From: Candidatus Norongarragalina meridionalis
GTDB taxonomy: Archaea; Micrarchaeota; Micrarchaeia; Norongarragalinales; Norongarragalinaceae
NCBI GenBank assembly: GCA_902384935.1
Contig: CABMDO010000012.1
Coordinates: 1-64,000, forward strand
Direction of reading: 5' to 3'
Length of the DNA: 64,000 nt
The position numbers and the translations under genes are program-made. Positions 23,223 through 63,997 of this stretch are shown piece after piece. The notes under the pieces are model-generated. The model searched no databases and was not told where the DNA came from. It saw only the letters and a list, made by a program, of their open reading frames with translations. Each line of letters opens with the position of its first letter. Positions within the stretch are counted from its first letter, which is position 1.

Positions 23223-23545
23223 TTCCTCTCCAGCGCCCTTATGTAGTAAAGGTGCGTCAGCGGCACGTCCTGTTCCTTCAGGAATCCCGCCTGCATCCGC
23301 GTGCGCTCCTTCATGAGAATCATGACGCACTGCGGACAGACGACGCCTCCGAAAACGCGCTCAGGGCGCTTCTGCGTCTTCTTCGAAGCCTTCGGGTTCA
23401 TGCCGTGGAGTCCGCCTCCGCACAGCGCGCAAAGGCGCTTCGCGGGCTTCTCCTCCTTCGGCTTGAACGTAGTGCGTCCGCCCGGGCTCTTCCGCATCCT
23501 TTTCTTTATCTTGCGTTGTTTAGGTGCAACCATCTTATGCATCAA
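23219..23545 (-). CDS. rpl34e: ribosomal protein L34e
   Basis: RKSPGGRTTFKPKEEKPAKRLCALCGGGLHG...RVFGGVVCPQCV (C4 zinc ribbon, L34e pattern). Confidence 0.7.
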   Translation of the reverse strand: MMHKMVAPKQRKIKKRMRKSPGGRTTFKPKEEKPAKRLCALCGGGLHGMNPKASKKTQKRPERVFGGVVCPQCVMILMKERTRMQAGFLKEQDVPLTHLYYIRALERK

Positions 23546-24049: not shown

Positions 24050-24204
24050 GCGACTGAATCCCCGAATAGGTTTAAGAAACGCCGCCGCGGATTATAAGCC
24101 TTCCGAACCCGCCGCGGGTGTCTAGAACCCTGCGAACTCCTTCGGAACCGCGGAGAGGGCTTCGCCCCCTCCCCAGTTCAACGGTTTTCCTGACCCTCCC
24201 CCTG

Positions 24205-25419
24205 TCAGAACCCTGCGAACTCCTTGATGCGCTTCATTCCTTCCTTCAAATCGTCCATGGAGCTCACGAGGCTGAGGCGAATGTGGTCCTTTCCCGACGG
24301 TCCAAAGGCGGGTCCCGGCAAACAAACGACTCCCTTCTCCTGCAGGAGCGCGTTGCACAAATCGAGCTCGCTCTTGAATCCGCGAGCGTCCATGATTTTG
24401 CGTATGTTCGGGTAGGCGTAGAACGAACCGCCGGGAAGCGCGCAATAGCATCCCATGTCCTTGAACGCATTCACCGCGTAGTCGCGGCGCGCCCTGTATT
24501 CGGCTTTCATCTTCGCTACTTCTCCCTGCGGGCCGCGTACCGCCTCGATGCCCGCGTACTGCGTGAATTCGGCTGTGCAGGAGGCGATGTTGCCTATCAT
24601 TTTTCCGACAGTCGGAGCGAGATGCTTCGGCAGAACCATCCACCCGAGCCTCCAGCCGGTCATCGCCCACGTCTTCGACGCGCCGTGCACCAGAACCGTG
24701 CGCTCCATCATGCCGGGGCGCGAAAGAATGCTGGTGTGCTCGCCTTCGAAAACGAAGTCGTCGTATATTTCGTCGGAAACAACCAGCATGTCGTGCTTTT
24801 TCGCGAGTTCCTCGACGACGTCCCAGTCCTCCTTCTTCAGTATCCCGCCCGTGGGGTTTGAAGGCGAAATCGTGAGCAGCACCTTGTCCATTCCGGCGGG
24901 AACGCTTTCCACGACTTGGCGCAGGACGTTGACGTCGTAGCGCCAGTCGTTCCTTTCCTCCATCGGTACGCGGTATATCTTCGCGCCGTAGTATTTCGCG
25001 TTGTCTATGTACGGCCCGTATCCCGGATCCGGCATTATCAGCGCGGTGTTCGGCTTGGTGTGGTCGATTATAACCTGGAAAAGCGCGTTGATGAGCGGCT
25101 TCGCTCCCGGGCCGATTACCACGCAATCCGGGTCTATGGTTATGCTGCGCTTCTTTCCGAGGTATTCCGCAACTGCTTCGCGAAGCTCGCGTATGCCGTT
25201 GGACGGCGTGTACTTCGTTTTCCCTGCATGAAGCGCCTTCACCGCCGCATCGACGATGTTGTCGGGAGTTCGGAAGTCGGGTTCGCCGATTTCGAAATGA
25301 ATCGCCTTCTTTCCCGTCTGGCGCTCCCATTCGCGCGCCTTGCCCAGCCAGATGAACGCTCCTTCTCCAGCGAGTTCCTTCGCACTCGGATTCGCATCAA
25401 TCATCAGAACACACCCCAC
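24205..25419 (-). CDS. aspC: class I/II PLP aminotransferase (aspartate aminotransferase-like)
   Basis: HGASKTWAMTGWRLGW (PLP Lys motif), SPSNPTGG, 404 aa. Confidence 0.8.
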   Translation of the reverse strand: MGCVLMIDANPSAKELAGEGAFIWLGKAREWERQTGKKAIHFEIGEPDFRTPDNIVDAAVKALHAGKTKYTPSNGIRELREAVAEYLGKKRSITIDPDCVVIGPGAKPLINALFQVIIDHTKPNTALIMPDPGYGPYIDNAKYYGAKIYRVPMEERNDWRYDVNVLRQVVESVPAGMDKVLLTISPSNPTGGILKKEDWDVVEELAKKHDMLVVSDEIYDDFVFEGEHTSILSRPGMMERTVLVHGASKTWAMTGWRLGWMVLPKHLAPTVGKMIGNIASCTAEFTQYAGIEAVRGPQGEVAKMKAEYRARRDYAVNAFKDMGCYCALPGGSFYAYPNIRKIMDARGFKSELDLCNALLQEKGVVCLPGPAFGPSGKDHIRLSLVSSMDDLKEGMKRIKEFAGF

Positions 25420-30578: not shown

Positions 30579-31688
30579 GCCTGCATAAAACTTCTTTTTA
30601 GCCCGACGGGCAGGATTGGAACGGCCCCGTCTCTTCAGTCGGATACGAGTAGTCGGTATAACTGTCATAGGGCCCGAGGCCGATCAGCCAGAGCGGGCAG
30701 AACAAGCCGCTGAGGCCATTGCCAGTGAAGCATCCGAGGTCGCAGGAACGGTGGCACAGCCCGCCAATAATCGGAATAGTCAACTCGCCATTTTCCGCGC
30801 AGGCGTCGTAGCAGGCATCGTGCGTCCTGCAGCCGCCGTTGCTTCCGCACTGCTGCACGGCGTATGTGCATTGGTAGAAGCAGCCTTGGCCGTCGTTTAC
30901 GCATTGGGTTTTCTTGGGCAGCTGCTTGCATGTCCATGGGCAGTCCGCGCCGCACGCTCCCCTGCATTCGGACCCGCTGGCGATAGTGGGGTTGCGAGGC
31001 TGGGTTCCGCTGACTGCCTGCGGGCACGGCGGACGAACATATGCGCATGTTGGAGTTGGGCTCGGGCTGACTTCAGGCGGTTCAGGAGGAGGTGCGCGCG
31101 AGGCTTCGGGAATCATCACCGGCGAGGCTTTGGGCATGGGTGTCGATGTTGGAGCGGGTATTTTTGTCGCTGTCGGAGCGGGCATTTCTGTCGGCGTCGG
31201 AGAGGAACCCGGGCATCCGTTGGCGTCGATTCTTGTTCCGCTCAGTGAGGCTGAGCCTTTACAGCATTTGTCTTGGTCGTAGTAGTCCCAGGTGTAGCTG
31301 CCCGTGAAAGAGGAGCAGTCGGACGAGAAGACCAGGTCGAAGGCGGAAAGTGTGGCCGTGCCGGTGCCGTCAGTGACGGTCCTGCCGGGCATGCTGAGAG
31401 TGTTGCCCAGGAACGTACCCCTCGCGGGGCCGTCGCCCCAGTCGCTCACGTCCGCAATCTGCATGTCGTGCTGTATGATGACCTCGCGGACATCCGTCGC
31501 GATGCCGGTTCCGCAATCGGTTTCATCGTCGCTGACGGTGACGCTCCAATGGGTTATGCCGACATAAGTCCCAAAAGTAAATGTGGATTGCGCGGTGACC
31601 ATTTGCGGCAAGAAAAGGATGAAAAGCAGGACCAGTGAGCAGACAAAAACCGTTTTCATTTCGTTCCCCATCACGATATCGCCTCTCC
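30579..31688 (-). mobile_element. single-gene cassette inserted at the mscL 3' end, flanked by 55-bp direct repeats (no recombinase)
   Basis: 1.1 kb between DR1 and DR2 carries only ORF 30598..31674. Sits between the convergent ade and mscL genes, whose stops would otherwise be 3 nt apart. Confidence 0.5.
30598..31674 (-). CDS. secreted Cys-rich protein with Pro/Thr linker (cassette cargo)
   Basis: Signal MMGNEMKTVFVCSLVLLFILFLPQMVTAQS. Linker PTPTEMPAPTATKIPAPTSTPMP. ~24 Cys in the C-terminal half (CGADCPWTCKQ...CHRSCDLGC). Confidence 0.5.
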   Translation of the reverse strand: MMGNEMKTVFVCSLVLLFILFLPQMVTAQSTFTFGTYVGITHWSVTVSDDETDCGTGIATDVREVIIQHDMQIADVSDWGDGPARGTFLGNTLSMPGRTVTDGTGTATLSAFDLVFSSDCSSFTGSYTWDYYDQDKCCKGSASLSGTRIDANGCPGSSPTPTEMPAPTATKIPAPTSTPMPKASPVMIPEASRAPPPEPPEVSPSPTPTCAYVRPPCPQAVSGTQPRNPTIASGSECRGACGADCPWTCKQLPKKTQCVNDGQGCFYQCTYAVQQCGSNGGCRTHDACYDACAENGELTIPIIGGLCHRSCDLGCFTGNGLSGLFCPLWLIGLGPYDSYTDYSYPTEETGPFQSCPSG

Positions 31689-47053: not shown

Positions 47054-47266
47054 ATGTTCCGTGAAATAACGTATTCGCTGGTTTTCGGCAAACCCCTGAT
47101 AATGTGGATGGGCTTGCTCGTGCTGCTGTGCGTGCTCGCCACCGCGACCATGGGTTTCCTGGCGCTGAAAGGGAAGGCGTCCATCGAAACGCACAAGCGC
47201 GTCGCCATAGCGACGATAGCGCTCGCGCTACTGCACGGAACCCTCGGCATACTCGCGTACTTCTGA
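47054..47266 (+). CDS. small 2-TM membrane protein
   Basis: 70 aa with two hydrophobic helices. Co-oriented directly after the cupredoxin gene. Confidence 0.4.
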   Translation: MFREITYSLVFGKPLIMWMGLLVLLCVLATATMGFLALKGKASIETHKRVAIATIALALLHGTLGILAYF

Positions 47267-47283
47267 CGCGTACCGCCTTCGTC

Positions 47284-47297
47284 GGTTTTAAATATTG
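47284..47297 (+). promoter_or_regulatory. BRE/TATA-like motif GTTTTAAATATTG
   Basis: ggttttaaatattg lies ~40 nt upstream of the ATG at 47328. Confidence 0.45.
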
Positions 47298-47327
47298 CGG
47301 CGCCTTACAGCTAATCGGGGGAATTCT

Positions 47328-48027
47328 TATGCTGCGTATCGCCTTGATAGGCGGCGGAGGAGTGGGCAAAAGCACGCTAGCCTACGCTTTTTCCTCTTAC
47401 TGCCGCAAGCAGGGGGTTTCCGTGGCGATAGCGAACCTCGACCCCGGATGCAAGCACATCAAGTATACGCCTGCGTTCGATGTGCGCAAGTATTATTCGC
47501 TCGACAAAATCATGCGCTCCGCCGAGCTCGGGCCGAACGGCGCGCTGAAGCGTATCCACAATTCGCTCCTCTCGAACAAAAAGGCGATGAAGGAGCTCGG
47601 CGCGGTAGAGTCGGACTTCGTTTTCATCGACACCGCGGGTTCGCTGGAGCTTTTCCTCACCGAGGGCGGGGCGGATTTTCTCGAGCAATCCGCCGACTTG
47701 GTGCTTTTCGTCTGCGACAACGAAGCGGCGCAGTCCGAGGACGACATGGTGCTGCTGAAGGCGATAAACGCCATCCAGCGCCTGAAATACTGCCTTCCCA
47801 CTCTGACGGTTATAAACAAAGGCGATTTGCTGACGCGGCGAAAACAGAAAAACGGGCAGACCGTGCTCGGGGGAATGGCTGCGGTGAACGCGCATCTGCG
47901 CGCGTTGCTATCGGAAGTGGGCAAGCGCGAGCGTTTGCTCGTGGTAAGCGCGGTGGAGCGCCGCGGGTTCGGGGAGCTCTTCGACGCGATAAACGAAAGC
48001 AAATGCGAGTGCGGCGATTTGGAGTGA
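47328..48027 (+). CDS. GPN-loop GTPase (XAB1/PAB0955 family)
   Basis: P-loop GGGGVGKST, the diagnostic ELGPNGAL (GPN loop), and DTAG. ~230 aa. Confidence 0.7.
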
Positions 48028-49903: not shown

Positions 49904-50650
49904 ATGGTCGCGCTTAAAAAAATCGTTTCCTTCCTCGACAAGGAGCTGCGCGTCCGCGGCATGGAGGAAGATTCGCTGAACGGACTGCAGTTCAAGGGCG
50001 CGCCGGAAGTTTCCACCGTTTCCTTCGCAGTCGACGCGTGCCTTTCCTCCTTTGAAAAAGCCCGCGGCGAGCTTCTGATAGTGCATCACGGCATGTTCTG
50101 GAAGAAAGCGATGCCGATCAAGATGGACGCGATGTGGAAGAAACGCTTCGCAACTCTGAAGAAAAAGCGGCTGTCGGTTTACGCGGCTCATCTCCCGCTT
50201 GATGCGCATCCCGTTCTCGGAAACAACGCCGAGATGGCGAGGCGGCTCGGCGTGAAAAAACTGCGTCCTTTTGCGGAATATGACGGCATAAGATGCGGTT
50301 TGACGGGAGAACTGCCCAAGGCGATTCCGCTTGCCGAACTCGCGCGAAAGGTGGAAAAGGCGGTTGGCGGAAAGGCGAGGGTGTTCGCGTTAGGAAAGAA
50401 GAACGTGAAACGCGTAGGGCTTATTACCGGCGGAGGAGGGTTCGGCGTTCTCGACGCGAAATGCGGGGACGTACTCGTTACGGGCGAGTTCGGGCATTCG
50501 AAATATCATTTCGCGAAGGAAAAGGGAATCAACGTCATAGCCGCGGGGCATTACAAGACGGAAAAGCTGGGCTTGGAAGCGCTTGAAAAGGAAATGCGCA
50601 GGCGCTTCGGCGTTAAGACGGAATTCGTTGAGTCGCCGACAGGACTTTGA
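49904..50650 (+). CDS. Nif3-family dinuclear metal centre protein (GTP cyclohydrolase 1 type 2 homolog)
   Basis: MVALKKIVSFLDKEL..DSLNGLQF...ELLIVHHGMFWK...YAAHLPLDAH. Confidence 0.7.
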   Translation: MVALKKIVSFLDKELRVRGMEEDSLNGLQFKGAPEVSTVSFAVDACLSSFEKARGELLIVHHGMFWKKAMPIKMDAMWKKRFATLKKKRLSVYAAHLPLDAHPVLGNNAEMARRLGVKKLRPFAEYDGIRCGLTGELPKAIPLAELARKVEKAVGGKARVFALGKKNVKRVGLITGGGGFGVLDAKCGDVLVTGEFGHSKYHFAKEKGINVIAAGHYKTEKLGLEALEKEMRRRFGVKTEFVESPTGL

Positions 50651-50711
50651 TTTTCGCGGGGGGAGGTTCGGTGGAGTAAGCACCGGAGGGGGCGAAGCCC
50701 CTTCCCGCGGC

Positions 50712-51941
50712 TTACTCGCCCTTCTTCTGAAGATACTTGAAGTAGGCGTAAGCGAGGACTACGAAAAGCAGGACGAGCAGGATGGGCCCGAAGTCCGTAT
50801 TCTGCTGCGCGGGCGTCGGTGTCGCGCTCGCAGCCACGCATTTCCGGTTGTACGTGCCCTGTATCGTGCTTGCGAGGGATTGCGCCTGCGGAAGCAGCTG
50901 CGCCATCTTGGAATAGGCGTCAGACGTTCCCTTCGTCCTGTAGTATTCGATGTCCGCCCAATTCCGCTTGAACGTCGTTACCTGCGAGCCGAGGTTCTTG
51001 TCGCACGCCTTCAGCACGGATTCGCTCGAGATTATGTAATTCGCCGTTTGCTGGAGCGCGTCGTACGACTCCAGCGCTTCCTTGCGGGTTTTGCGGAAGA
51101 AGAACGACGCGGTTGAGTCGTTCACCCACCTGTCCTCGTTGTTGAGAAGCGACTGCATGCCGGTGCGCGGGTCCTGAGAAGCGAATTTCGCGTAAAGCGA
51201 CGACAGCCCTATGTCGCGCATGTTTTCGAGGCTGTTGTATATGCTGTCGCTGTCGGGCGCCTTTATGCCCGAGCGGGAAACCTGGGATTGCAGTTCCGTG
51301 ATGCTCTGCGAGTACGTGTTGTAAGCGTCGAAAATCCCGAACAAGCCGTCGTACGCGGTTCCGTACGTGTCGAGGACGTAGGGAAGCTCGGAAGCCGCGT
51401 AGGAATCCTCAAAGGACTGCCACATCTGCGAACCGTCCTGCAGCGTCGGCAGCACGTCGTTCTCCAAATCCGACACGCGCTGAAGATTGGTTTCAACCGC
51501 GTCGAACGAAAGCGTCGGGTATTTCGCCTCGGTCTGCGCCCTCAAGTCCGAAAGCTTGTTCTGGTTCTGCATCACCACGCCGGCGCTTGATTGCACGACG
51601 GGCATAATCACGTCGAAGGAATACTTGTTCTTCTCCACGTATTCGTCGATTATGCGCATCTTGTAAAGCGCCGCAGCCGCGGTCGAAAGCCGCGTTTCGT
51701 CCGTTACGAGCGCGCCGTTATCGTCGTCAACCGCGATCAGCACCTTCTTCGGCGAGTATATCGAGTAGAAGTAAAGCCAGTATATTCCGCTTCCCACCTC
51801 CATGGGTTTGCTGAGCAGAAGGATGTCGCTGTCGCTGCCGATGTAAGGGGAGGCGATTGTCTGCGCCTCGTCGCTCGAAATGGCGGCGAAAACAAGCGGC
51901 GCGGAAACCACCGCCAGCATGAGCAACAGTTTTCCGTTCAT
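50712..51941 (-). CDS. secreted pilus-locus protein with signal peptide and C-terminal TM anchor
   Basis: MNGKLLLMLAVVSAPLVFAAISS signal. C-terminus ..ATPTPAQQNTDFGPILLVLLFVVLAYAYFKYLQKKGE (Thr/Pro linker, TM, basic). Last gene of the 7-gene minus-strand cluster. Confidence 0.5.
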   Translation of the reverse strand: MNGKLLLMLAVVSAPLVFAAISSDEAQTIASPYIGSDSDILLLSKPMEVGSGIYWLYFYSIYSPKKVLIAVDDDNGALVTDETRLSTAAAALYKMRIIDEYVEKNKYSFDVIMPVVQSSAGVVMQNQNKLSDLRAQTEAKYPTLSFDAVETNLQRVSDLENDVLPTLQDGSQMWQSFEDSYAASELPYVLDTYGTAYDGLFGIFDAYNTYSQSITELQSQVSRSGIKAPDSDSIYNSLENMRDIGLSSLYAKFASQDPRTGMQSLLNNEDRWVNDSTASFFFRKTRKEALESYDALQQTANYIISSESVLKACDKNLGSQVTTFKRNWADIEYYRTKGTSDAYSKMAQLLPQAQSLASTIQGTYNRKCVAASATPTPAQQNTDFGPILLVLLFVVLAYAYFKYLQKKGE

Positions 51942-51995
51942 TTTCCTTCGAGGACTCTAACTAACCGCGAATATAAAAACAAATTCCTTGAGGGA

Positions 51996-52592
51996 TTATC
52001 CGCGCTTCGGCTTCTTCGGCCGCAGGCTGGAAACGGCGCCGTCCATGGCGGAAGCCGCGGGATTCGCCGAGAGGAATGGCGCGAACGGGGTGGCTGTCCT
52101 CATGCTGGGGAACCAGAAGTTCCACGCGACGTAAATCAGCACCTCTGGCGGGGTCGTGCTGGGCTGCTGCCCGAAATTTTTGATGGGTGGGCATTCGGCA
52201 ATCGCCCAGTCGCTCGTGTTGGAGGTGAACTCGCCCGCGTTGAGCGTGACGCTCTGCTTGAAGTGCCAGCTGTACTGCGGCCCTGGCTTTACGCCGTTGC
52301 CCACGTCGGTGAACTGTTCGTAGCAGTTGAGCGTCGCGGCGTAGGGCGGCACCGGATTGAACGACTGCAGCTCCACCTTGAACATCTTCAGTTGCTGCGG
52401 GATTCCGGGCGGGGCGATGGAGTAAATCCAGCCGTGGTTCGGGCCGTCGACGCAGAGCCACGCCTGGTAGAGCCACGCGCCGTTGAGCATGTCGTGCTCC
52501 AGCGCGCACGCCGGAGTTGCGTAAACGAGCGGCAGAGCCGCGACTAGCGCGAAAACAGCCAGCAAATGCCCAGACTCCATTATATCCCCCAA
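51996..52592 (-). CDS. secreted protein (pilus locus)
   Basis: Signal LLAVFALVAALPLVYATPACA. Trp/Pro/Asn-rich. Confidence 0.45.
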   Translation of the reverse strand: MGDIMESGHLLAVFALVAALPLVYATPACALEHDMLNGAWLYQAWLCVDGPNHGWIYSIAPPGIPQQLKMFKVELQSFNPVPPYAATLNCYEQFTDVGNGVKPGPQYSWHFKQSVTLNAGEFTSNTSDWAIAECPPIKNFGQQPSTTPPEVLIYVAWNFWFPSMRTATPFAPFLSANPAASAMDGAVSSLRPKKPKRG

Positions 52593-52643
52593 TGGATGTT
52601 CGGAACTAATCTGCTATATAAAGGGCATCTCGGCTGTTCGCGC

Positions 52644-52868
52644 TCACGGTCCGAGCGTCTGGTTCGTCAGGTTGCCCGTGAGGTTGTGTATCGTGCCGCT
52701 GCCGTTGGCGATTTCGCCGCCGGCGCTCGGGAACAGCCCGCCGCGCACTATCACGAGAAGCAGGACGATGAAAAGCAGCACTCCCGCTACGAGTATGACG
52801 TATTCGAGCGCGGTCTGGCCCTTTACACGACGCATGCCGCCGCATGCGTCAAACAAGGTGCGGCGCAT
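52644..52868 (-). CDS. class III signal peptide pilin-like protein (archaeal type IV pilin / Flp-like)
   Basis: MRRVKGQ|TALEYVILVAGVLLFIVLLLVIV (KGQ cleavage motif plus conserved E+5). Start ATG 52868 or Met 52835. Confidence 0.6.
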   Translation of the reverse strand: MRRTLFDACGGMRRVKGQTALEYVILVAGVLLFIVLLLVIVRGGLFPSAGGEIANGSGTIHNLTGNLTNQTLGP

Positions 52869-52870
52869 CT

Positions 52871-52978
52871 TCAAGCAGCCATTACGTTAGTCTTTATGAG
52901 GTACGCGACGGCGCTGACAAGGACGACTGTAGCCGTTATCAGCAGCGTGTACTCCATTGCGGTTTGTCCCTTCAGCAT
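52871..52978 (-). CDS. minor class III signal peptide pilin-like protein (35 aa)
   Basis: MLKGQ|TAMEYTLLITATVVLVSAVAYLIKTNVMAA. Not in the ORF track. Overlaps the end of the upstream T2SSF gene. Coordinates +-1. Confidence 0.5.
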   Translation of the reverse strand: MLKGQTAMEYTLLITATVVLVSAVAYLIKTNVMAA

Positions 52979-53886
52979 ACCAATCCCTTCCCTCCGACTA
53001 TGGAGAGGCTAAGCCATTTTCCCATCTCGTATATCAGGAGACAGGCAAGAACCATCAGAGGAACATACAATATATACCTTGCTATCTTTCCCTCGCGGAT
53101 TATGCCTATGGCGAAGGACGCGATGAGCGTCTGGAGCACCAGGAAGACGGTAAGCAGCGTGTTCAAATCGCACATGTTCAGCTGCCCCGCGCCCGGCATG
53201 GCGCCGGAAATCCCGACGTTTATGTAATTGACGATGCTCAGCGTGAATCCGAAGATGAAGGGCGAGAGGAATACCGAGGAAACGCTGAGGAAGAGCACGT
53301 GCATCGTGGTGCGCGAGTGGCGCTCGCGCTTGATTCTGAGGACATCGCGCGCGTCCTCGGAAATCTCCGCCATCACCTGCGCTACCCCCGCGCCTGCGCG
53401 TTTCGCGTCGACCACTATGGTCGCGGTGCGCCTGAACAGCGTGGAGCCGGAATTGTTGGCGCAATCAAGAAGCACGTCGTCGAACGTTTTTCCTTCGCGT
53501 AATTGGTGGAGCGAGCGCAGCAGATCCGCGCTGAGCGGGCCGTAGTCGGCGTGCGCCACCTCGTCCAGCGCGCTTTCGACTGTTCCGCCCGCCTTCAGCA
53601 CGAGCGCCATGTGCTTCAGCGCGTCGGGCAGCGCCGCGTCGATAGCGTCTATGCGGCTGTTGCGTATGCTTATCGGAATCGTGAGAGAAAGGCTCAATAT
53701 CGCGATGAACGCCATGCCCGAAACTATCGGGTTCAGCTTCAGCATCGAAAGGAGGAGGGCAGTCGCTACCGCGACGACGAAGAACATCCCCACGAAAAGT
53801 TCGAAAGCGAACGTGAACCCCGTCGCGGCGTAGTAGCGCCTCATCTCGGCGTATTTTTCTCCGACGTACACGATGGGGTTTTTCAT
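52972..53886 (-). CDS. T2SS-F-domain membrane protein (TadB/TadC-like, single domain)
   Basis: 304 aa. One GspF-like cytoplasmic domain (..LPDALKHMALVLKAGGTVESALDEVA..) flanked by TM blocks. Confidence 0.6.
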   Translation of the reverse strand: MKNPIVYVGEKYAEMRRYYAATGFTFAFELFVGMFFVVAVATALLLSMLKLNPIVSGMAFIAILSLSLTIPISIRNSRIDAIDAALPDALKHMALVLKAGGTVESALDEVAHADYGPLSADLLRSLHQLREGKTFDDVLLDCANNSGSTLFRRTATIVVDAKRAGAGVAQVMAEISEDARDVLRIKRERHSRTTMHVLFLSVSSVFLSPFIFGFTLSIVNYINVGISGAMPGAGQLNMCDLNTLLTVFLVLQTLIASFAIGIIREGKIARYILYVPLMVLACLLIYEMGKWLSLSIVGGKGLVC

Positions 53887-53887
53887 G

Positions 53888-54970
53888 CTACCACGCGGCG
53901 GGCTCCATCCTCTTGGTTACGTAGAGGATCGCTATCATCGTGAGCAGGATTCCGAGGAACGCGAGATGTATGAAATACGGGGGAATGCCTATGGACGCGA
54001 ACATGGGTATCTGCAGTATCGCGCTCATAATCGCGACGCCGACGGGCGCTACGACCGCCACCATGATGTATATGATGTTCACGAAATTCAGGCGCTCCGT
54101 GAAGTCGCGGATGCTCATGCGCGTCTCGAAGGAAACGTCGTCCGCGATGTCCGTGATAACCTGCGAGAGCGAGCCTCCGCTCCTGAAGGAGCGTATCATC
54201 TGCGTCAGCGCCTTGCGCAATCCCTTAGATTGCGTGCGCTTCGAAAGCGCGCCGAGCGCGTCCTCGTTGCTCATTCCGTTGTCCAAGTCGCTCAGCACTT
54301 TTCCGAATTCCTCGCTGAGCACGCCGTAATTCGAGTTCGCGACCGATTCCATCGCCTTCGAGAAGCTCACTCCCGCCTTTATCTGCGTCGACAACTGCCG
54401 CAAGGCGAAAGGAAGCACGCGGTCTATGTCGCGCGCACGCGACGCCGCCCTGTTGATGGGATAGAATATCCCGGCAAGCACGACGAGTATGAAAAACGCG
54501 CCTCCCACGAGCGGCGAAATCGCGGCGAGCGTCGCGTCGTTCAGCGCTATGCCGAGTATCAGGAACAGGATGGCGCCGAAAATAGCGCCGAGCACGGCGT
54601 TCACGGCAACCGCGATGAGGTACGCTTCCGGCGGAGTTTTCAAGCCGGCGGAATCGAGCGTCCCGCGGACTTTCTGCAACGCAGGCAAGCCAGACATCGC
54701 CTGCGCCAGCTTGGTGAAGGGCCCCCTGAACGCGGTGAAAAGAGAGCCCGCGAGCCCGCCTATCTTCTCAGCATCGAGCTTCTTGAAATCAAGCGGCTTC
54801 TCTCCCGCGCCTTCCATGCGTTCGCGGAGTTCCGCGCCTTTGGTGCGGAGAGAGGATTCGCCGCGCAGGCGCGTGACTATCCTTTTCAAATCCTCCTTCT
54901 CGGCGCCGCGCTCCTCCTTTTTTGTGACAACGGCCTGCTTTAGGCGCGCGAGCCGCTCGTTCGAAGGCAT
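53888..54970 (-). CDS. T2SS-F-domain membrane protein (TadB/TadC-like, single domain)
   Basis: 360 aa. ..LPFALRQLSTQIKAGVSFSKAMESVA..YGVLSEEFGKVLSDLDNGMSNEDAL.. is the GspF fold. Confidence 0.6.
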   Translation of the reverse strand: MPSNERLARLKQAVVTKKEERGAEKEDLKRIVTRLRGESSLRTKGAELRERMEGAGEKPLDFKKLDAEKIGGLAGSLFTAFRGPFTKLAQAMSGLPALQKVRGTLDSAGLKTPPEAYLIAVAVNAVLGAIFGAILFLILGIALNDATLAAISPLVGGAFFILVVLAGIFYPINRAASRARDIDRVLPFALRQLSTQIKAGVSFSKAMESVANSNYGVLSEEFGKVLSDLDNGMSNEDALGALSKRTQSKGLRKALTQMIRSFRSGGSLSQVITDIADDVSFETRMSIRDFTERLNFVNIIYIMVAVVAPVGVAIMSAILQIPMFASIGIPPYFIHLAFLGILLTMIAILYVTKRMEPAAW

Positions 54971-55016
54971 ACGCAGCGATTACGCCAGCCGCTTTTAAAA
55001 ACAGTCGCTACGGCTG

Positions 55017-58000
55017 TTATTGGCACACGCAGTTGTCGGCTTCCAGCGCCTTTTCGTCGCCCTTTATTTCGCACGCCGCACTCCCGCCGGTGCTCATCGA
55101 CTTCTTTTCGTCGACGAGGCAGCTGTGCAGCGCGTCCGCGGACGAGCCGGTTATCGTGCAGCCCTGAAGAACGCCCTTCGTAAGTTCCGAGTACTTGTTC
55201 GCCGTGAAGCAGTTCGGGGTTCCAAGGTCGAAGCCGACGCTTCCGTCGGACTTGACGTACGGGAACGATATCGGCGGCGAGTTCGTGCTGGTGCCGCCGC
55301 CCTGTATCGAAACGAGCACGGAAGACAGCTGGGGCGTCGGAGCGGTTCCGAAGAACCCGCCGCTTACCATCACGCCGTCCCACGGCGTTCCGTCGATGTA
55401 GTCGATAATCTCGGCTTTCTCTTCCCCGCCCATAATGCCAGCTCCGCCGGCTGCGGGGTCGTACGCGAAGTCCACGAGGTGGATTCCGCCCTTGCCCTTC
55501 GCAGTCAGTCCGCCGAGCTTCATCGGCACGAGCACATGCAAGTCGTTGCTGTAGAGCGGAGTCTTCACGTTGACCGCGCCGGTAGTGGGATACATGGACG
55601 CCGTGAGGCTGTTCTTGACAGAGGGCCAGAACTGCTGCTGGGTTGCTGTTCCCGACGCGCCGAACGCGTAGTTGAGCAGCTGCGAGTTGCACGCCGCGGA
55701 ACGGAATGCGTCGCCGTAAACGTCGCCGAAATTATACGTGGGCGAATAGGATACGGGCACGTAGTTGCTGCCGTACATCGAATCCGAGTAAGAGGACATG
55801 TATCCGGGCGGCTGCGTCATCTGCTGGCTGCAGGACTCCTTCATGCTCTTCAGCGGATCCTTGCCGAGCTTCAGGCATGCTTGGTAAGTCGTCGCCTGCG
55901 CCATGTAATCCGCGATGGCGTCGTTGAGCGCCTTCTGGAACACGTCCGCCGTGCCCTTGACTATTCCCTGCGTGTCCGCCTTGGGAGTGTCCATCTGCTG
56001 CTGCGCGAACAAGCCGTTGAGTTCGTCGTTAAGCGCGCGCGACGCCGCGTCGTACTTCGCCTGGTCGCAGTAATTTGTGCCGGTGCACTCGAGCGCTTCG
56101 GCATCGGCGGGGCTTTCCCCTGCGCCCGGCTTTCCTCCGCCTTCGCCGCCGAGCTGTCCTGTCGCGGTTATCTTGCCGGACGCGGTTTCGGTCGTCGAGG
56201 CGGGCGCAGCCGGCGCTTCAGGCGCGGGCGCTTCGGTTGTCTTCAGATTTCCGATCACGTCACCCTGCATCCACGTGCCCTTCGGGTTTTCGAACCTTCC
56301 GCTGAGGTCGAAACCGATTGCGCCCGTGAACTCCTTGGTTTTAACGGTCACGGTTTTCGCCTGCTCCTTCGTAAGCGCGAGCATGCCCGCCTTCTTCGGG
56401 TCTATTGTCACGGAGCTGCCGCCGCCGGTTACGGTCATGTGCAGCGTCGGGTTGTTGTTGACGAACAGGAACGGCTCTTTGATGTTGTTGGCGTCGGTTC
56501 CGCGTCTGTATACGTTGCCCGACATCGGAACTATCATGAACGCGTAGCGCGCCGCCGTTTCATCGTCGTTTGATTCCACGCTTATTTTTATCTTCCTGGA
56601 GGCGCTGCCGAGCACCCCGCTGCTCTGGAGCGTGAGCGTGACGCTGTCCACCAGCGGTTCGATGCGAAGCTGCCCGTTCTCGTCGGGCTTGTAAACGGCG
56701 CAACCCTCCTTCGGGTTGAACAGCACCAGATAAGAGCGATACTGGTTCGCGGGCACGAGCGTTCCAGTTACCGCGTCCTGCAGCTTGTTTATCAGGGCGC
56801 TGAGCCCGAGGTCGCGCGAGAAGTCGTGCTCTATGTCGCGTATCACGAAGCATTTGTTCTTGTTGTTGTCCCAATTCACGAGGAGCTGCGTGTCCGCGCC
56901 GAGAAGGTTCTGTATCGAGAACGCGACTCCAGCGACGGGGAACAGGGAGTTGATTTTAATCGTCGCCTCGCCGCTGCTCGGCAGAGGACCGTTGCCCGTC
57001 CATCCGACTCCCGGAACGAGGACGAACTGGTCCTCCATGCTGCCCGCCACGTATCTCGAACGGGTGCTCGGGTTGAAGAGCTGCTGCGCGTGGTATTGCC
57101 CGAGCCTGCGCGCGAGCATGTTGCTGAGATCGAAGTTCGCGGGACTGCACTGGTCCTGCCTGAACGATACGCAGGACGTGAAGACGTGCGTGTTCACGTC
57201 GTAGTTGGCGTAGCACGAGCCGTTGTTCTGCAGTACGTTGCACGCGCTTTCGTTGCACAAATCGCAGCGTTTCGCCGAGCACGTGGCGTTCGGGGAAGGC
57301 GACGGAGACGGAGAAGGCGATGGTTGCGCGCACGCCAGGAACGCGTCCTTGCCGTCGGCGGTTTTCGCGTACTGGGGCAGGCAATAGCCGCCAGTCTTGT
57401 TGAGGTTGAGGCACTGCTGTTCCGTGCATTCCTTGCACGCAGCTGACGAGCATTTTTCGTTTCCAGTAGTCGTGTTCTTCTTCAGCGCCGCGCATTCCAC
57501 CTTTATCCACGCGGTTTGCGAATCCGTGGAACCCGTTGATTCGAGCGTAGTCGTGAATACCAAATAGCATTGGTCGCTGCGTATCGGCGTCATCACCACC
57601 TGCGTGCTCTTGCCGCCGGGAATAACTATAGTGTACCTGTCGTCGCCCGAGGACGTGACGCGCGAGCCCGCGAGCGAAACGCACGCGGTGCCCGAGAAAG
57701 CTGCGGAAACCGTGACGTCCGTCTTCAGCGAGTTTTCAATCGTTACCGCCTTGGCGTCGCACGTCATCGAAATCGCGGAGATGTCGGGCGCGTACGAGAG
57801 GAAGTCCGTCGCGGACACGCGTACCGTAGCGCGCGCATCCTCGTATCCCTGCTTGGACGCGACAACGTCGAACGTTCCCGGAGAAACCGGCAGCAGTCTC
57901 TTGAAAGTGTATTTGCCTTCCTTTCCTTTTCCGTCGGTGCCGTCGCCCTGGATTGCGTAGTCGCCGTTCGCTTCGCCCGAAAACGGCTCGCCTGTTCCTT

Positions 58001-60866
58001 CCTCGATGGCGACGCGCGCGTCGGTTATTGCCGAACCCGTGCTCGAGAATACGGTTGCGGTAAGGTCCGCCTTTGTTCCCGACTCCATGGTTGCGGGCTT
58101 TACCGCAACAACCATCGAACCCGTTCCTTCGACTATTACGTAGCGTTCGTCCGAAAGCAGCGTTCTTCCCGCATCGGTAAGCTCGAATTGCATGCGCGCG
58201 AAATCGCTCGGCTCCACGGCGCGGACGTCCGTCGCGACGCTGCCCTCGCCTGCGTCGTCGAGCGCAACGCCTGCGCTCCACTCGTCGGAGTTGTTCGCCT
58301 GTATGAACTGCAGCGCTCCGCCAAGCGAGCGTATGCGCACCGTGGGCACGGAAACGTCGCCGAATACCCGCACAGCCACGTTCGCGGTGAACGAGTGCCC
58401 GAGCCCGACGGTCAAACCGTTCGCGCCCTTCTCGGTTGTGGTGTTAAGTGTGATTATCATGCACGCGTTCTCCGTGCACAGGCTTCCGCCCTCGTTGACG
58501 TCGTATTTCGCGTCCGTGGTTTTCGCGCGGCATCCCTCCTTTGCCGCGGTGCTCTCCGCGTATCCCAACACCGTATCCTCGGGCGTGCGGTACCATACGT
58601 CCGCCTTCTTCGCGTAGGCGCGGTAATGGAACGATACTTTGCTTTTTCGCGTAGCGTTCGGGCTTACAAACACCTTCACCGCGAGAGTTTTCACGCCGAA
58701 CGATGAATATTCCTGCTGCACCCATTTTACGTGCGAGTCGCTCGCGTTGTCCGCCACTTCGTCGGTGCACGCGCTTTCCGCGTCGTACGTTCCGCCCCAC
58801 GTAATTTCCGCATCCTGCGGCTTGTCGAAATACGATATGTACGCCGCATCCGCGTCAAGAGTCGTGTTGTCGCCTATGCGGAGGTATGCTCCGCCGCGTT
58901 CCACGCCGCCGGGTATGTTCAAGGTAAGCAGAGCGAGATAATAGCGTCCGCGGTCGAGCGAACCCACCGCCTCGCCGCCATTGAGCGGTTCGAGCCTGAA
59001 ATCAACTACCTGCAGCTGCTTCGCCTGCGACGTCGGAAGCATGCGCAGTTCGTAATAAACGCTTCCTTCGTTGTCAACGGAAATCTGTTCGCTTTCGTAA
59101 TCCGCGAACCCTCCGGCGGTTGCCTTGAGCACTATCTTGCGGTCCGAGCGCACCTTCAGCGAGCACGTGCTGTTCAGCGGGCTCGTTCCCGTGGCGCACG
59201 TAGCGCTTGCGGAAGTCGCGCCTTCCTCGAACGCCTTCACCGTTGCGGTCAGCAGATTGCCGGTTGTCATGTCCGTCGCGTTGACGAATATCCTTCCGTA
59301 CGGCGCGGGCAGCTTCAGTTCCAGCGGCGATTCACGCGCTTCGAGCGTTATCTTCGTTATGTCGCTGTATCCGTGCACCGAGCCTGCTGTGGCATACGCC
59401 TTGATTTCCTCGAGCGGCAATCCCGCGAATGAAACGAATCCGTCGTATCCGGTTTCCTGCGAAGGCACGCCGAGCGAGAACCCGTCGCCGGTTACCAGTT
59501 CAACCGAAGCGAGCTCGACGCGCTTTCCGTCGGCGTCAAGAACGACTATGTCGAGCGTACCGCTGTTCCCCGCAACAAGCGCCTCGAGCGCTATTGTCTT
59601 GGAGTCTCCCGCCACCACGTTCTTCTCTATATGCGGAAGATAGCCTTCCGCGTAAATCGTAAGATAGCCCGCGCTTTTCGACGACACTTCCAGCACGCAC
59701 TCGCCGTGCGTGTCGGTGTTGCACGACGCGAGTTCGCGCAGAGGCGCGTCCGCCATCAGGAAGCGCACGTACGCGCCCTCGATCGACTGCCCCGCGTCCC
59801 CGGTAACCTTGACGTTGACGTTGCGCAAATCCGCCGCGGTTTTGCGCTGGAGCCTTGCCTTGAATTCCACGTAAGTTTCCGACGCCACGCCCTGCACGTC
59901 GTTCGCCGCTGCGCCGTTGTATCCCGCGTACGCATCGGACGGAGGTTCGACAACTACGTAGACGCGCGTGCCCGCTTCGGCGGCGGAATCGAAGAAAACT
60001 GTTCCCTGCGAATCAGTCACTCCCTCGGTTATGACGTTCGAGGAATCGGCGTCGTGCACTATTACGTGCGCGCCCTCGAGCTGGATTCCTCCGTCGTCTT
60101 CGACTGTAACGAGAATGCTGCCCTTGGACGGCGCGCTTCCGCCTTCGTCCTTGGGTTTCGCGCCATCGGGTGAAAGCGCGAGCGAGCACTGCTTCTGAGA
60201 CGCGAAGCACGTAACGCGGTCCGAAACGAATCCGTCGCGCGAGACGCGTATGTTGAAGATGTCGGAAACCCCTGCGAACTCGATGAAAGCGCTGCCCGTT
60301 GCGTCGGTGGCGAGTTCCTTGACGTTGCCCGCGGTGTCGGTGTATACTACGGACGCGGCTTCAAGCGGCTGGCCGTCCGCGTTCGTAACCGCGAGGGCAA
60401 TCCTGTTCGCCTCGCTTGTCGCGGGTTCGAGAAGCGCGGTAAAGCTCTGCGCGCCCGTAACCAAAACCTCGTTGCCATAGTCGGCGTAACCCGCTTCCTT
60501 TATCTGCACGAGCGCCTTTTTCCCGACGGGCAACCCCGTGAATTTCGCAACCCCGTTTTTGTCGGTTTTCAGGTCGAACGACTTGTCGTCTACCGTCAGG
60601 TGCACAAGCGCGTCCTGAATCGGCTCGTCCCCGGACATTACCGTAACCGTAAGCGCGGTTTTAGGCGACGCAACGTCCTGGAGAACGAAAAAGGCGCCTG
60701 CGCCGAGCAGGGCGACGAGCAGGACGAACACGGGCAGCGAAGGGATTCCCTTGTCCTCGATGGGGGTTACGAACCAATCCACCGCGGGCACGCCTTTCGC
60801 CTGCAGCCAGTCCATGAGCGCGTAATAGCGCTCTTCGATAGAGACGTAAATTTCCTTGAGTGCCAT
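55017..60866 (-). CDS. giant (approx. 1950 aa) N-terminally anchored surface protein / putative adhesin
   Basis: Start at MALKEIYVSIEERYY.. followed by the TM LPVFVLLVALLGAGAFFVL. Many carboxypeptidase-regulatory/Ig-like-looking repeats (VTxxDGxPLEGAxV). Cys-rich module (CSSAACKECTEQQC...PSPSPSPSPSPNATCSAKRCDLCNESAC). First gene of the pilus cluster. Confidence 0.6.
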   Translation of the reverse strand: MALKEIYVSIEERYYALMDWLQAKGVPAVDWFVTPIEDKGIPSLPVFVLLVALLGAGAFFVLQDVASPKTALTVTVMSGDEPIQDALVHLTVDDKSFDLKTDKNGVAKFTGLPVGKKALVQIKEAGYADYGNEVLVTGAQSFTALLEPATSEANRIALAVTNADGQPLEAASVVYTDTAGNVKELATDATGSAFIEFAGVSDIFNIRVSRDGFVSDRVTCFASQKQCSLALSPDGAKPKDEGGSAPSKGSILVTVEDDGGIQLEGAHVIVHDADSSNVITEGVTDSQGTVFFDSAAEAGTRVYVVVEPPSDAYAGYNGAAANDVQGVASETYVEFKARLQRKTAADLRNVNVKVTGDAGQSIEGAYVRFLMADAPLRELASCNTDTHGECVLEVSSKSAGYLTIYAEGYLPHIEKNVVAGDSKTIALEALVAGNSGTLDIVVLDADGKRVELASVELVTGDGFSLGVPSQETGYDGFVSFAGLPLEEIKAYATAGSVHGYSDITKITLEARESPLELKLPAPYGRIFVNATDMTTGNLLTATVKAFEEGATSASATCATGTSPLNSTCSLKVRSDRKIVLKATAGGFADYESEQISVDNEGSVYYELRMLPTSQAKQLQVVDFRLEPLNGGEAVGSLDRGRYYLALLTLNIPGGVERGGAYLRIGDNTTLDADAAYISYFDKPQDAEITWGGTYDAESACTDEVADNASDSHVKWVQQEYSSFGVKTLAVKVFVSPNATRKSKVSFHYRAYAKKADVWYRTPEDTVLGYAESTAAKEGCRAKTTDAKYDVNEGGSLCTENACMIITLNTTTEKGANGLTVGLGHSFTANVAVRVFGDVSVPTVRIRSLGGALQFIQANNSDEWSAGVALDDAGEGSVATDVRAVEPSDFARMQFELTDAGRTLLSDERYVIVEGTGSMVVAVKPATMESGTKADLTATVFSSTGSAITDARVAIEEGTGEPFSGEANGDYAIQGDGTDGKGKEGKYTFKRLLPVSPGTFDVVASKQGYEDARATVRVSATDFLSYAPDISAISMTCDAKAVTIENSLKTDVTVSAAFSGTACVSLAGSRVTSSGDDRYTIVIPGGKSTQVVMTPIRSDQCYLVFTTTLESTGSTDSQTAWIKVECAALKKNTTTGNEKCSSAACKECTEQQCLNLNKTGGYCLPQYAKTADGKDAFLACAQPSPSPSPSPSPNATCSAKRCDLCNESACNVLQNNGSCYANYDVNTHVFTSCVSFRQDQCSPANFDLSNMLARRLGQYHAQQLFNPSTRSRYVAGSMEDQFVLVPGVGWTGNGPLPSSGEATIKINSLFPVAGVAFSIQNLLGADTQLLVNWDNNKNKCFVIRDIEHDFSRDLGLSALINKLQDAVTGTLVPANQYRSYLVLFNPKEGCAVYKPDENGQLRIEPLVDSVTLTLQSSGVLGSASRKIKISVESNDDETAARYAFMIVPMSGNVYRRGTDANNIKEPFLFVNNNPTLHMTVTGGGSSVTIDPKKAGMLALTKEQAKTVTVKTKEFTGAIGFDLSGRFENPKGTWMQGDVIGNLKTTEAPAPEAPAAPASTTETASGKITATGQLGGEGGGKPGAGESPADAEALECTGTNYCDQAKYDAASRALNDELNGLFAQQQMDTPKADTQGIVKGTADVFQKALNDAIADYMAQATTYQACLKLGKDPLKSMKESCSQQMTQPPGYMSSYSDSMYGSNYVPVSYSPTYNFGDVYGDAFRSAACNSQLLNYAFGASGTATQQQFWPSVKNSLTASMYPTTGAVNVKTPLYSNDLHVLVPMKLGGLTAKGKGGIHLVDFAYDPAAGGAGIMGGEEKAEIIDYIDGTPWDGVMVSGGFFGTAPTPQLSSVLVSIQGGGTSTNSPPISFPYVKSDGSVGFDLGTPNCFTANKYSELTKGVLQGCTITGSSADALHSCLVDEKKSMSTGGSAACEIKGDEKALEADNCVCQ

Positions 60867-61656
60867 AATAAAAACTTGCCCGCGTATATATAAAAACGTG
60901 CTTAAAATCGCCTTCGGCGAAGCCGCCGCGAGCCTCGGAAAAACGCTCATAGTTGCGGACCTTCACCTCGGCATCGAACTCGAACTTCGAGCCCGCGGCA
61001 TAAACGCGAGGCAGCAGTGGCATCCTTGCGCGGTTCGCATAAACAAGCTGCTGAAGAAAATGAAATGCGGCAGCCTCGTGATTCTGGGCGACGCCAAGCA
61101 CGACGTCTACGGCTGCGACATCGAAGAGCGCACGATGATGAGGCGTTTCCTCGACAGCCTCGACACCAAGGACGTGCGCATCATAAAAGGAAACCATGAT
61201 TCCCTGCTCGAAGGCGTCGCGCCCATTATTCCCGCTACGGGCATGCGCATCGAAGACGGGGGCGAGTCCTACGGTCTGTTCCACGGGCATGCGTGGCCCG
61301 CCAAGGACGTGCTCGCAGCCGACATTTTTCTCATGGCGCACCAGCATCCCATGTACGAATTCAAGGACAAAGCCGGCAGATGGAGCGAGAAATGCTGGAT
61401 TTCGGCCGAAACAAAAGCCAATAAGCGGTTCGGAGTAATGGGGAAGCGCAGGGTTGTCGTCTTTCCGGCATTCGGCATTCTTTCCGGAGGCATTCGCCTA
61501 AATGCCGAAAAAGGAATCGGCCCGTTCTTCGAAAATCCGCTCCTGCGCAAGGCGACGGCATTCTCGCTCGAAGGCGCGCCCCTGGGTGCACTAAGCGTTA
61601 GCCGCCCGAAACCTTATACTGTTCTTTATACTTCTTTTCCGGAGGATATTTTTTAA
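60856..61656 (+). CDS. calcineurin-like metallophosphoesterase
   Basis: ..LIVADLHLG...ILGDAKHDVYG...IIKGNHD...GHAWP... (metallophosphatase motifs I-V). The C-terminal 22 codons run into the cassette insertion. Confidence 0.65.
   Translation: MSAIIKTCPRIYKNVLKIAFGEAAASLGKTLIVADLHLGIELELRARGINARQQWHPCAVRINKLLKKMKCGSLVILGDAKHDVYGCDIEERTMMRRFLDSLDTKDVRIIKGNHDSLLEGVAPIIPATGMRIEDGGESYGLFHGHAWPAKDVLAADIFLMAHQHPMYEFKDKAGRWSEKCWISAETKANKRFGVMGKRRVVVFPAFGILSGGIRLNAEKGIGPFFENPLLRKATAFSLEGAPLGALSVSRPKPYTVLYTSFPEDIF
61531..61588 (+). repeat. direct repeat copy 1 (~56 bp) of the phosphoesterase 3' end
   Basis: aaaatccgctcctgcgcaaggcgacggcattctcgctcgaaggcgcgcccctgggt matches the copy at 62327..62382 with 4 mismatches. 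Coordinates +-3. Confidence 0.8.
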
Positions 61657-63580: not shown

Positions 63581-63997
63581 TCAGATAAGGTAGTTGAACG
63601 CCAAGTGCACCGCAACGGCTGCGATGAAACCCGCAGCCAGCCACCGCTTGTCCTTTGCGCCTGCGTAAACTGCGCATCCGAGAATCGCGCCGGTGAACGC
63701 GTGCATCGCAAGCGGCGGCAGCCGAGCGGACCAGAGCGAAAGGTCGTGGTAATAGTAGACGATGAAATAATTCGCCAGTTCCGCGGCGCCGAATCCTATT
63801 CCCGCGAGCAAGCCGCACGCGGCTCCGCCGGCGAGCGTAATCCCCTTCCTTCCGCATAACGCGAACGCGCCGAATATCGCAGCCAGCTTCAGCGCCTCCT
63901 CCAGAGCCGTAGCAACGGGCATGGACAGCCCAACCAGTGAAAAAATGCCCGCAGTCGCGCCTGCGAGAACGCCCAGGAAAAGCGACGCCCCGAGCAA
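63581..63997 (-). CDS. hypothetical membrane protein (start at or beyond the window end)
   Basis: 138 aa, 4 TM, Gly/Ala-rich helices. Confidence 0.4.
   Translation of the reverse strand: MLGASLFLGVLAGATAGIFSLVGLSMPVATALEEALKLAAIFGAFALCGRKGITLAGGAACGLLAGIGFGAAELANYFIVYYYHDLSLWSARLPPLAMHAFTGAILGCAVYAGAKDKRWLAAGFIAAVAVHLAFNYLI

Follow-up and report, generated by a model that had tools for sequence, protein, structure and literature searches.

A split-platform type IV pilus-like locus of Candidatus Norongarragalina meridionalis (Micrarchaeota) without a linked ATPase gene

Where is the motor of a pilus whose locus encodes neither an ATPase nor a prepilin peptidase? The question is raised by seven genes on the minus strand (60866-50712) of a 64,000-nucleotide (nt) stretch of DNA from the archaeon Candidatus Norongarragalina meridionalis (contig CABMDO010000012.1, positions 1 to 64,000), referred to throughout as the window. 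An earlier reading of the letters alone (the sequence-only reading) had described these genes as a type IV pilus-like (Tad/Epd-like) locus, headed by the gene of a giant surface protein and devoid of an ATPase. The analysis reported here suggests, with a probability of about 0.75, that the cluster contains the platform and pilin genes of a micrarchaeal type IV pilus of the Epd-like/Tad-like kind (system 1), whose ATPase and peptidase genes have been moved elsewhere by rearrangement. Apart from the separation of the ATPase gene from the platform genes, nothing in the organisation is new, and the whole amounts to a rearranged, known Epd/Tad-like system.

The seven tightly packed, co-directional open reading frames (ORFs) that had been proposed at 50712-60866 were all verified by translation (Table 1). 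Four of them, located in the middle of the cluster and referred to as the core, encode the pilus parts. T2SSF-A and T2SSF-B are single-domain members of the same Pfam family (PF00482, at 1.2e-22 and 8.1e-16, respectively); the two assignments, whose failure under profile search would have refuted the sequence-only reading, hold. T2SSF-A possesses a charged cytoplasmic N-terminus of ~110 amino acids (aa) followed by about 6 transmembrane (TM) segments, and partially matches the NCBIfam models of ArlJ/FlaJ, UpsF, and GspF; T2SSF-B, whose start lies 1 nt past the T2SSF-A stop codon, aligns to the C-terminal half of the fused FlaJ (positions 279-550 of 555 of the NCBIfam profile). The next gene overlaps the end of T2SSF-B by 7 nt and encodes a mini-pilin (MLKG/QTAMEY..., the slash marking the cleavage site) recognised by the Class_IIIsignal family (PF04021, 1.8e-5), whose predicted mature form of ~31 aa is essentially a single hydrophobic helix with a Flp-like G-x4-EY motif. 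The fourth protein, pilin-2 (MRRVKG/QTALEY...), is a short class III pilin without a globular domain and with four N-x-S/T sequons in its tail. It has no Pfam match, and its assignment stands on the class III motif and on homologous pilins of 59-63 aa occupying the same position in three related loci (L001, L003, and L033); pilin-2 is likely the major, glycosylated pilin. The split T2SSF pair and the two short class III pilins bear out the type IV pilus-like nature that had been ascribed to the locus.

For comparison, 58 orthologous loci were retrieved by scanning one genome per species, each genome giving one matching locus. A mini-pilin ORF of 33-44 aa is present in 30 loci, generally close 3' of T2SSF-B, and most of these ORFs match a pattern read by eye from the listed sequences (...GQTAIEYLLL...YFIKT...). 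In the public contigs inspected, this ORF is not annotated in the gene calls.

Neither an ATPase nor a prepilin peptidase lies in or beside the cluster, as had been claimed. In the 64-kb window, tblastn queried with ATPases of systems 1 and 2 detected no T2SSE ATPase, an unfiltered (--max) search with a profile built from 40 orthologous ATPases returned noise only (E > 2), and jackhmmer seeded with the peptidase of L038 disclosed no A24 peptidase. The sole true Walker A motif found by a P-loop scan of the window, in which no KaiC profile was run, belongs to a GPN-loop GTPase (47104-48027); Pfam further detected a cytidylate-kinase-like AAA protein (22671-23330). Nor can the missing pair lie just past the edge of the same operon: since the neighbours are housekeeping genes, one divergent (metallophosphoesterase) and the other convergent (NIF3), no flanking gene can share the operon of the cluster. 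The absence of both genes from the 64 kb also lends itself to two other explanations. The first is that the split platform and the mini-pilin form an ATPase-independent or re-purposed module, i.e., a scaffold or pseudopilus-like device presenting or exporting the giant surface protein. The second is that the platform and pilin genes are a decaying remnant, non-functional after the loss of the ATPase, with unrelated surface proteins as neighbours; DPANN genomes are indeed reduced and genes are readily lost from them.

The orthologous loci revealed what the window alone does not contain. In most of the 58, a CpaF/TadA-like ATPase of ~510 aa was found by tblastn directly 5' of T2SSF-A, with a gap of 3-65 nt. 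These ATPase-linked loci belong to most Micrarchaeota and to the Iainarchaeum/Diapherotrites outgroup; the Walker A motif of the micrarchaeal ATPases examined is GGTASGKTT, and in NCBI records the orthologous ATPases bear the name 'CpaF family'. An A24-like peptidase is located 3' of the pilins in about 29 loci (jackhmmer), none of which is an ATPase-less clade member. Since most loci are ATPase-linked and about 29 carry the peptidase, the ancestral order is ATPase, platform A, platform B, mini-pilin, further pilins, and peptidase. The ATPase is absent from the window, L004, L006, L012, L001/L002, L008, L003/L015, and L033. On a neighbour-joining tree constructed from T2SSF-A plus T2SSF-B, those of them with both platform genes complete (the window, L004, L006, L012, L001, L008, and L003) form one clade nested among the ATPase-linked loci; L026 and L038 are separate cases. 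Throughout this clade, the platform and pilin genes sit between variable surface-protein genes and p409, the last gene of the cluster, beside NIF3. The stability of the ATPase-less arrangement across the whole clade would also suit an ATPase-independent module.

Against such a module stands the finding of an intact orthologous ATPase elsewhere in the genomes of two members of the clade. The first of these orphan genes, P0283, is located on contig PFPF01000035 of the same metagenome-assembled genome (MAG) that carries the ATPase-less locus L033 on PFPF01000023; the second, P0345, is AUJ16_04700 of CG1_02_60_51, whose T2SSF-A is AUJ16_02940. The stand-alone ATPase recurs in four independent contigs, in a housekeeping context: an IMPDH-like gene precedes it (with NDK and dCTP deaminase genes further upstream in the longest contig), and on its 3' side lie a convergent gene of 211 aa and one for a methionine aminopeptidase. 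The protein is full length, 61% identical to a linked orthologue, and has kept all motifs (Walker A, Asp-box, Walker B, and His-box). Because the orthologous loci are linked and two genomes of the clade keep an orphan ATPase, the lack of an ATPase is best read as a gene relocation at the base of the clade, i.e., as an effect of gene order; in this respect the sequence-only reading is not supported. A comparison of the start of the window with an orphan-ATPase neighbourhood (L064) gave no syntenic match.

A separate observation concerns the pilus ATPase genes themselves: several of them are interrupted by inteins right after the His-box (...NTGHDG/C...), at the same site across lineages (Table 1). 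Split tblastn matches in the same context were obtained in L022-L024, L037, L047, and L053.

The way in which the core genes evolve bears on both alternatives. T2SSF-A has 128 homologues, mostly labelled Micrarchaeota, one MAG being 92% identical and the others 40-56%. Between the window and L004 (assembly JAZDNL01), its closest relative, the platform proteins are 92-93% identical, the synonymous substitution rate (dS) is 0.65-0.67 for both platform genes, and the ratio of nonsynonymous to synonymous rates (dN/dS) is 0.075 for T2SSF-A, 0.072 for T2SSF-B, and 0.014 for the mini-pilin. At about 0.07, the dN/dS of the platform genes indicates strong purifying selection, and the cytoplasmic parts of the T2SSF proteins, conserved like the rest, speak against a module that dispenses with its ATPase. 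As to a decaying remnant, it is contradicted by dN/dS values of 0.01-0.08 at a platform dS of 0.65, by the integrity of all four core ORFs, by the retention of the core in at least seven genomes of the clade, and by a TATA-like box at the right distance from the T2SSF-A start; decay is considered highly improbable. Judging from the relatives and from the purifying selection, the ATPase of the window organism would be encoded elsewhere in its genome.

The other three genes of the cluster pose the question of how far the system extends. In the sequence-only reading the giant was the first gene of one operon, which is probably not the case, since the 46 nt separating it from T2SSF-A contain a TATA-like box. 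The minus strand of the cluster contains three matches to a strict TATA pattern, all of them in intergenic position (before the giant, T2SSF-A, and sec194), and a weaker motif precedes p409; each box is followed, ~25 nt further on, by a start codon or by a position shortly 5' of one. This suggests four putative leaderless or short-leader units, one comprising the core genes and the other three formed by the giant, sec194, and p409. Separate boxes before each unit are also what would be seen if the cluster were not one system, the four core genes forming a pilus and the giant, sec194, and p409 being independent (S-layer-associated or host-contact) surface proteins.

The architecture that had been proposed for the giant is matched by Pfam and by the TM and Cys scan. 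The protein starts with a 42-aa cytoplasmic N-terminus, followed by a single TM segment (aa 43-63), by about six prealbumin/Ig-like domains (aa 65-530), with another near aa 980-1020, and by two Cys-rich modules joined by a (PS)n linker (aa ~1139-1240). The Pfam folds recovered at aa ~65-530, using both the whole protein and 195-aa segments, are CarboxypepD_reg, Big_1, SpaA, and MG-like; 40 Cys residues and 12 N-glycosylation sequons are present overall. No domain could be assigned to the C-terminal ~700 aa, no confident fold was obtained for aa 1240-1949 by single-sequence AlphaFold2 (AF2; predicted local distance difference test, pLDDT, 31.6), and no match was found among the PDB sequences. 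Among the fetched loci a homologue exists in L004 only, whose last 91 aa are 61% identical to those of the giant, with a dN/dS of 0.61. The giant evolves fast and is lineage-specific, not a conserved pilus component; it cannot explain, for this reason, the upkeep of an ATPase-independent module across the clade. It is plausible, judging by its position, that it is a lineage-specific or species-specific adhesin used with the pilus. An adhesin-presenting system of unusual composition had been envisaged; the adhesin part of this proposal is plausible, but the machine is an ordinary Epd/Tad-like one and the giant is shared with the closest relative only.

One identity that was considered for the giant is the S-layer protein of Micrarchaeota, which is described as having an N-terminal S-layer domain, few sulfur-containing residues, and a mass of ~100 kDa (bioRxiv 10.1101/2021.04.28.441871). 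It is ruled out by the missing S-layer domain (no Pfam match), the 40 Cys residues, and the length of 1949 aa, and this likewise counts against the independence of the giant as an S-layer-associated protein.

The counterparts of the giant in other members of the clade point in the opposite direction to independence. Their upstream slot is occupied by a pilin-like protein of class III (138-178 aa) and a surface protein (131-690 aa) whose C-terminal anchor consists of a Pro-x-Pro/[VL]P[DS] motif, a TM segment, and Arg/Lys residues; in one clade member the two are fused. Since in the relatives these surface genes abut or overlap T2SSF-A, the slot seems to encode variable surface proteins tied to the pilus, the giant being the occupant of this lineage. 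The constant upstream location of surface-protein genes, translationally coupled to T2SSF-A in relatives, could equally be invoked for the ATPase-independent module.

It should also be recorded that the Pro-rich motif (VPD, LPD, or VPS), the hydrophobic helix, and the Arg/Lys ends of the anchored proteins resemble exosortase/archaeosortase sorting signals, and that a gene of the archaeosortase family is present in the window.

The two remaining proteins had been described as secreted. Their signal peptides were indeed found, but sec194 corresponds to the ORF given in Table 1, the ORF at 51961-52509 lying in another frame. The sec194 protein, which has no TM anchor, was found in this window only, with no homologue in any fetched locus and no Pfam or NCBIfam match. 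In p409, the signal peptide is followed by a small alpha/beta domain (aa ~23-72), a long helical bundle (aa 82-369), a Thr/Pro linker, and a C-terminal TM anchor. Its predicted fold is confident (pLDDT 92); structure comparison gave no specific structural relative, and no match was found among the PDB sequences with p409 alone or as a profile. The family is small and lineage-restricted (45 representatives among 1.84 billion proteins). Its adjacency to the core is retained in all clade members with contigs that extend far enough to reveal it. Two distant relatives in other Micrarchaeota, one of them in the MAG that carries the ATPase-linked locus L005, stand alone beside a DRG-type GTPase gene and not near pilus genes. 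These stand-alone members weaken p409 as a dedicated pilus component: its link to the pilus is weak and it may be a bystander.

Independence of the flanking proteins can be argued from these p409 relatives and from the lack of counterparts of the giant (L004 excepted) and of sec194 in other loci. The fused or coupled pilin-like proteins of the upstream slot and the retained adjacency of p409 argue the other way; moreover, the proposal overlaps the preferred explanation, i.e., a relocated ATPase, in which the giant, sec194, and p409 are already accessory. As a distinct explanation it is rather unlikely.

The window harbours a second platform gene, encoding a divergent two-domain (fused) T2SSF protein of 739 aa (8673-10892, plus strand), with a 166-aa exosortase/archaeosortase-family gene on its 3' side (10894-11394, plus strand; TIGR04178, 40.9 bits against a cut-off of 23). 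Relatives of this platform occur in 42 metagenomic loci, half of which (21) contain a T2SSE ATPase; in most of these 21, where coordinates allow the check, an ATPase ORF of ~760 aa ends just 5' of the platform gene. Many ATPase-linked relatives are roughly 50-60% identical to the 739-aa protein, and no adjacent ATPase or remnant of one was found in the window or in the ~81% nucleotide-identical relatives L070-L072. Both pilus platforms of this lineage are separated from their ATPase genes. The second case might be taken as a further hint of platforms working without ATPase; however, we know of no T2SSF platform shown to work without a T2SSE ATPase, and together with the orphan genes, the conserved cytoplasmic parts, and the variability of the giant, this makes an ATPase-independent module very unlikely. 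That one stand-alone CpaF-like ATPase serves both platforms, or that one platform runs without a motor and presents the giant adhesin to a host, is a doubtful idea to which little weight can be given.

With a relocated ATPase as the preferred reading, the following course of events can be envisaged. In the ancestor of one clade of Micrarchaeota, a rearrangement would have split the platform and pilin genes from those encoding the ATPase and the peptidase, and the rearranged core would have landed between variable surface-protein genes and p409. The 35-aa and 63-aa prepilins would insert into the membrane and be cut after the Gly of KG/Q by a prepilin peptidase of the A24 type, whose gene would lie elsewhere. 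The membrane platform would be built from the two half-size T2SSF proteins; on it a hexameric CpaF/TadA-like ATPase, also encoded elsewhere, might dock and drive the short Flp-like pilins out of the membrane to form a thin adhesion filament that is probably glycosylated. The other three proteins (the giant, sec194, and p409) would be neighbouring surface proteins, each with its own promoter. Several points weigh against this picture: the ATPase and peptidase of the window organism itself were not seen; the orphan ATPase was found in a sister branch only (CG1_02_60_51 and CG_4_10_14_0_2_um_filter_60_11); both pilus and filament are known here from genes; the giant is tied to the pilus by its position; the promoters are assigned by motif matches; and p409 has the stand-alone relatives mentioned above.

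According to Denise 2019 (PMC6668835), the archaeal Epd-like clade is defined by its split platform and short pilins, and the bacterial Tad pilus derives from it; system 1, with its two platform genes, is known from methanogens and DPANN (Sivabalasarma & Albers 2026, bioRxiv 10.64898/2026.04.22.720090). The TadB/TadC-type split had been regarded as unusual for Archaea; it is instead the defining trait of the Epd-like system 1 and is known in DPANN (same sources). The Epd pilus of Methanococcus maripaludis (system 1; clade 1 of Makarova 2016) shares with the locus described here the two tandem single-domain T2SSF genes, the short KG/Q-cleaved class III pilins without a globular head, and adhesin-like accessory proteins in or near the locus. 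Epd/system 1 pili of methanogens and DPANN have a role in adhesion; the present one is known at the gene level. It differs in that the gene set of the Epd system includes the ATPase (and, in M. maripaludis, a dedicated peptidase), neither of which is found here within 64 kb, in the size of its smallest pilin (35 aa), and in its accessory genes (giant, sec194, and p409), which have no relation to those of Epd.

The bacterial Tad/Flp (Cpa) pilus is also similar in its TadB/TadC-type split, its Flp-like G-x4-EY pilins, and the CpaF naming of the orthologous ATPases. Unlike it, the present host is archaeal (the window contains PCNA, eIF2-alpha, SecY, and the GPN-loop GTPase) and the system is split, Tad being almost always encoded at a single locus (PMC6668835). 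No cluster protein has a Pfam or NCBIfam match to the secretin RcpA, TadZ, TadD, or TadE/F/G. An archaellum, with its fused FlaJ, FlaI/FlaH, FlaB archaellins, and FlaF/G, does not fit either, in that the platform is split and not a fused FlaJ, no archaellin-sized subunit occurs in the cluster, and the NCBIfam ArlJ scores are 35-59 bits against cut-offs of 400-570.

Within the same phylum, the report on the cultured micrarchaeon Mia14 (Golyshina 2017, PMC5498576) describes two type IV pilus systems, of the Methanococci/Thermococci and the euryarchaeal type, respectively, and a single prepilin peptidase whose gene is remote from the pilus loci. These loci, listed there as gene ranges, also have linked surface proteins. 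In the window lineage, both platform loci lack an adjacent ATPase. According to Makarova 2016 (PMC4858521), the ATPase/TadC pair is an evolutionary unit and pilins are sometimes encoded in trans. The haloarchaeal PilB/PilC modules with pilins in trans (PMC4858521) are a precedent for archaeal type IV pilus parts working from separate loci; in Haloarchaea, however, the split runs between the ATPase/TadC module and the pilins, and here between the ATPase and the platform-plus-pilin genes.

Table 1. Positions of the cluster genes, their boundaries and TATA-like boxes in the window, and of features discussed in related loci.
Feature	Sequence	Position	Strand	Length	Remark
Giant surface protein	Window	60866..55017	-	1949 aa	
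T2SSF-A	Window	54970..53888	-	360 aa	PF00482
T2SSF-B	Window	53886..52972	-	304 aa	PF00482
Mini-pilin	Window	52978..52871	-	35 aa	PF04021
Pilin-2	Window	52835..52644	-	63 aa	Class III motif; alternative start at 52868
sec194, secreted protein	Window	52580..51996	-	194 aa	
p409	Window	51941..50712	-	409 aa	Signal peptide and C-terminal TM segment
Metallophosphoesterase gene	Window	60856-61656	+		Divergent; cluster boundary
NIF3 gene	Window	49904-50650	+		Convergent; cluster boundary
TATA-like box TTTTTATATATA	Window	60885..60896	-		Centred ~25 nt 5' of giant ATG; implies leaderless transcript
TATA-like box TTTTTAAAA	Window	54993..55001	-		Giant/T2SSF-A gap; probable promoter of four-gene core
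TATA-like box TTTATATA	Window	52615..52622	-		5' of sec194
TATA-like box TTTTTATAT	Window	51971..51979	-		5' of p409; weaker motif
Mini-pilin ORF	L001	12028-12123			
Mini-pilin ORF	L003	12010-12108			
Anchored surface protein	L001	9201-10037			5' of platform
Anchored surface protein	L003	8701-9999			5' of platform
Anchored surface protein	L006	4926-5330			5' of platform
Anchored surface protein	L008	7926-9998			5' of platform
Anchored surface protein	L012	2373-2768			5' of platform
Intein-carrying ATPase gene	L049	6595-9915			
Intein-carrying ATPase gene	L056	2-2521			
Intein-carrying ATPase gene	L057	1238-4243			

Some other features of the window deserve mention. In the convergent gap between p409 and NIF3 lies a G+C-rich hairpin, GGAGGGGGCGAAGCCCCTTCC (50685-50706), with a similar one at 24151-24172; the 64 nt around it are 92% identical to the sequence 3' of the archaeosortase gene in contig L071 (4399-4461), and the hairpin may be a terminator or a small repeat element. 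The first 4000 positions of the window have a G+C content of 0.47-0.48, compared with ~0.58 elsewhere, and their ORFs, among which is a lipoprotein-like one of 344 aa with acidic repeats (2753-3787, minus strand), do not show the usual codon-position GC pattern; this region may be an island of foreign origin or of fast evolution. A fragment of a PrsW-family intramembrane protease (63581-63997, minus strand; PF13367, 5.5e-5) is cut by the end of the window, and an Rce1-like CAAX protease is encoded at 13053-13586 (minus strand). Four minus-strand ORFs of 290-563 aa (18975-20666, 20647-21519, 24122-25330, and 30598-31674) have no Pfam match.

Pili and giant surface proteins are the prime candidates for establishing the contact between DPANN archaea and the host cells to which they live attached. 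The current view of how type IV pili work is left unchanged by these findings. What the locus offers is a clean case of separation between a pilus motor gene and its platform genes, which are usually considered together as a single evolutionary unit, and locus-based detectors (MacSyFinder-type models) would probably score such split systems as incomplete. It also draws attention to a helix-only pilin of 33-40 aa that is missed by gene callers and to a fast-evolving adhesin candidate of 1949 aa.

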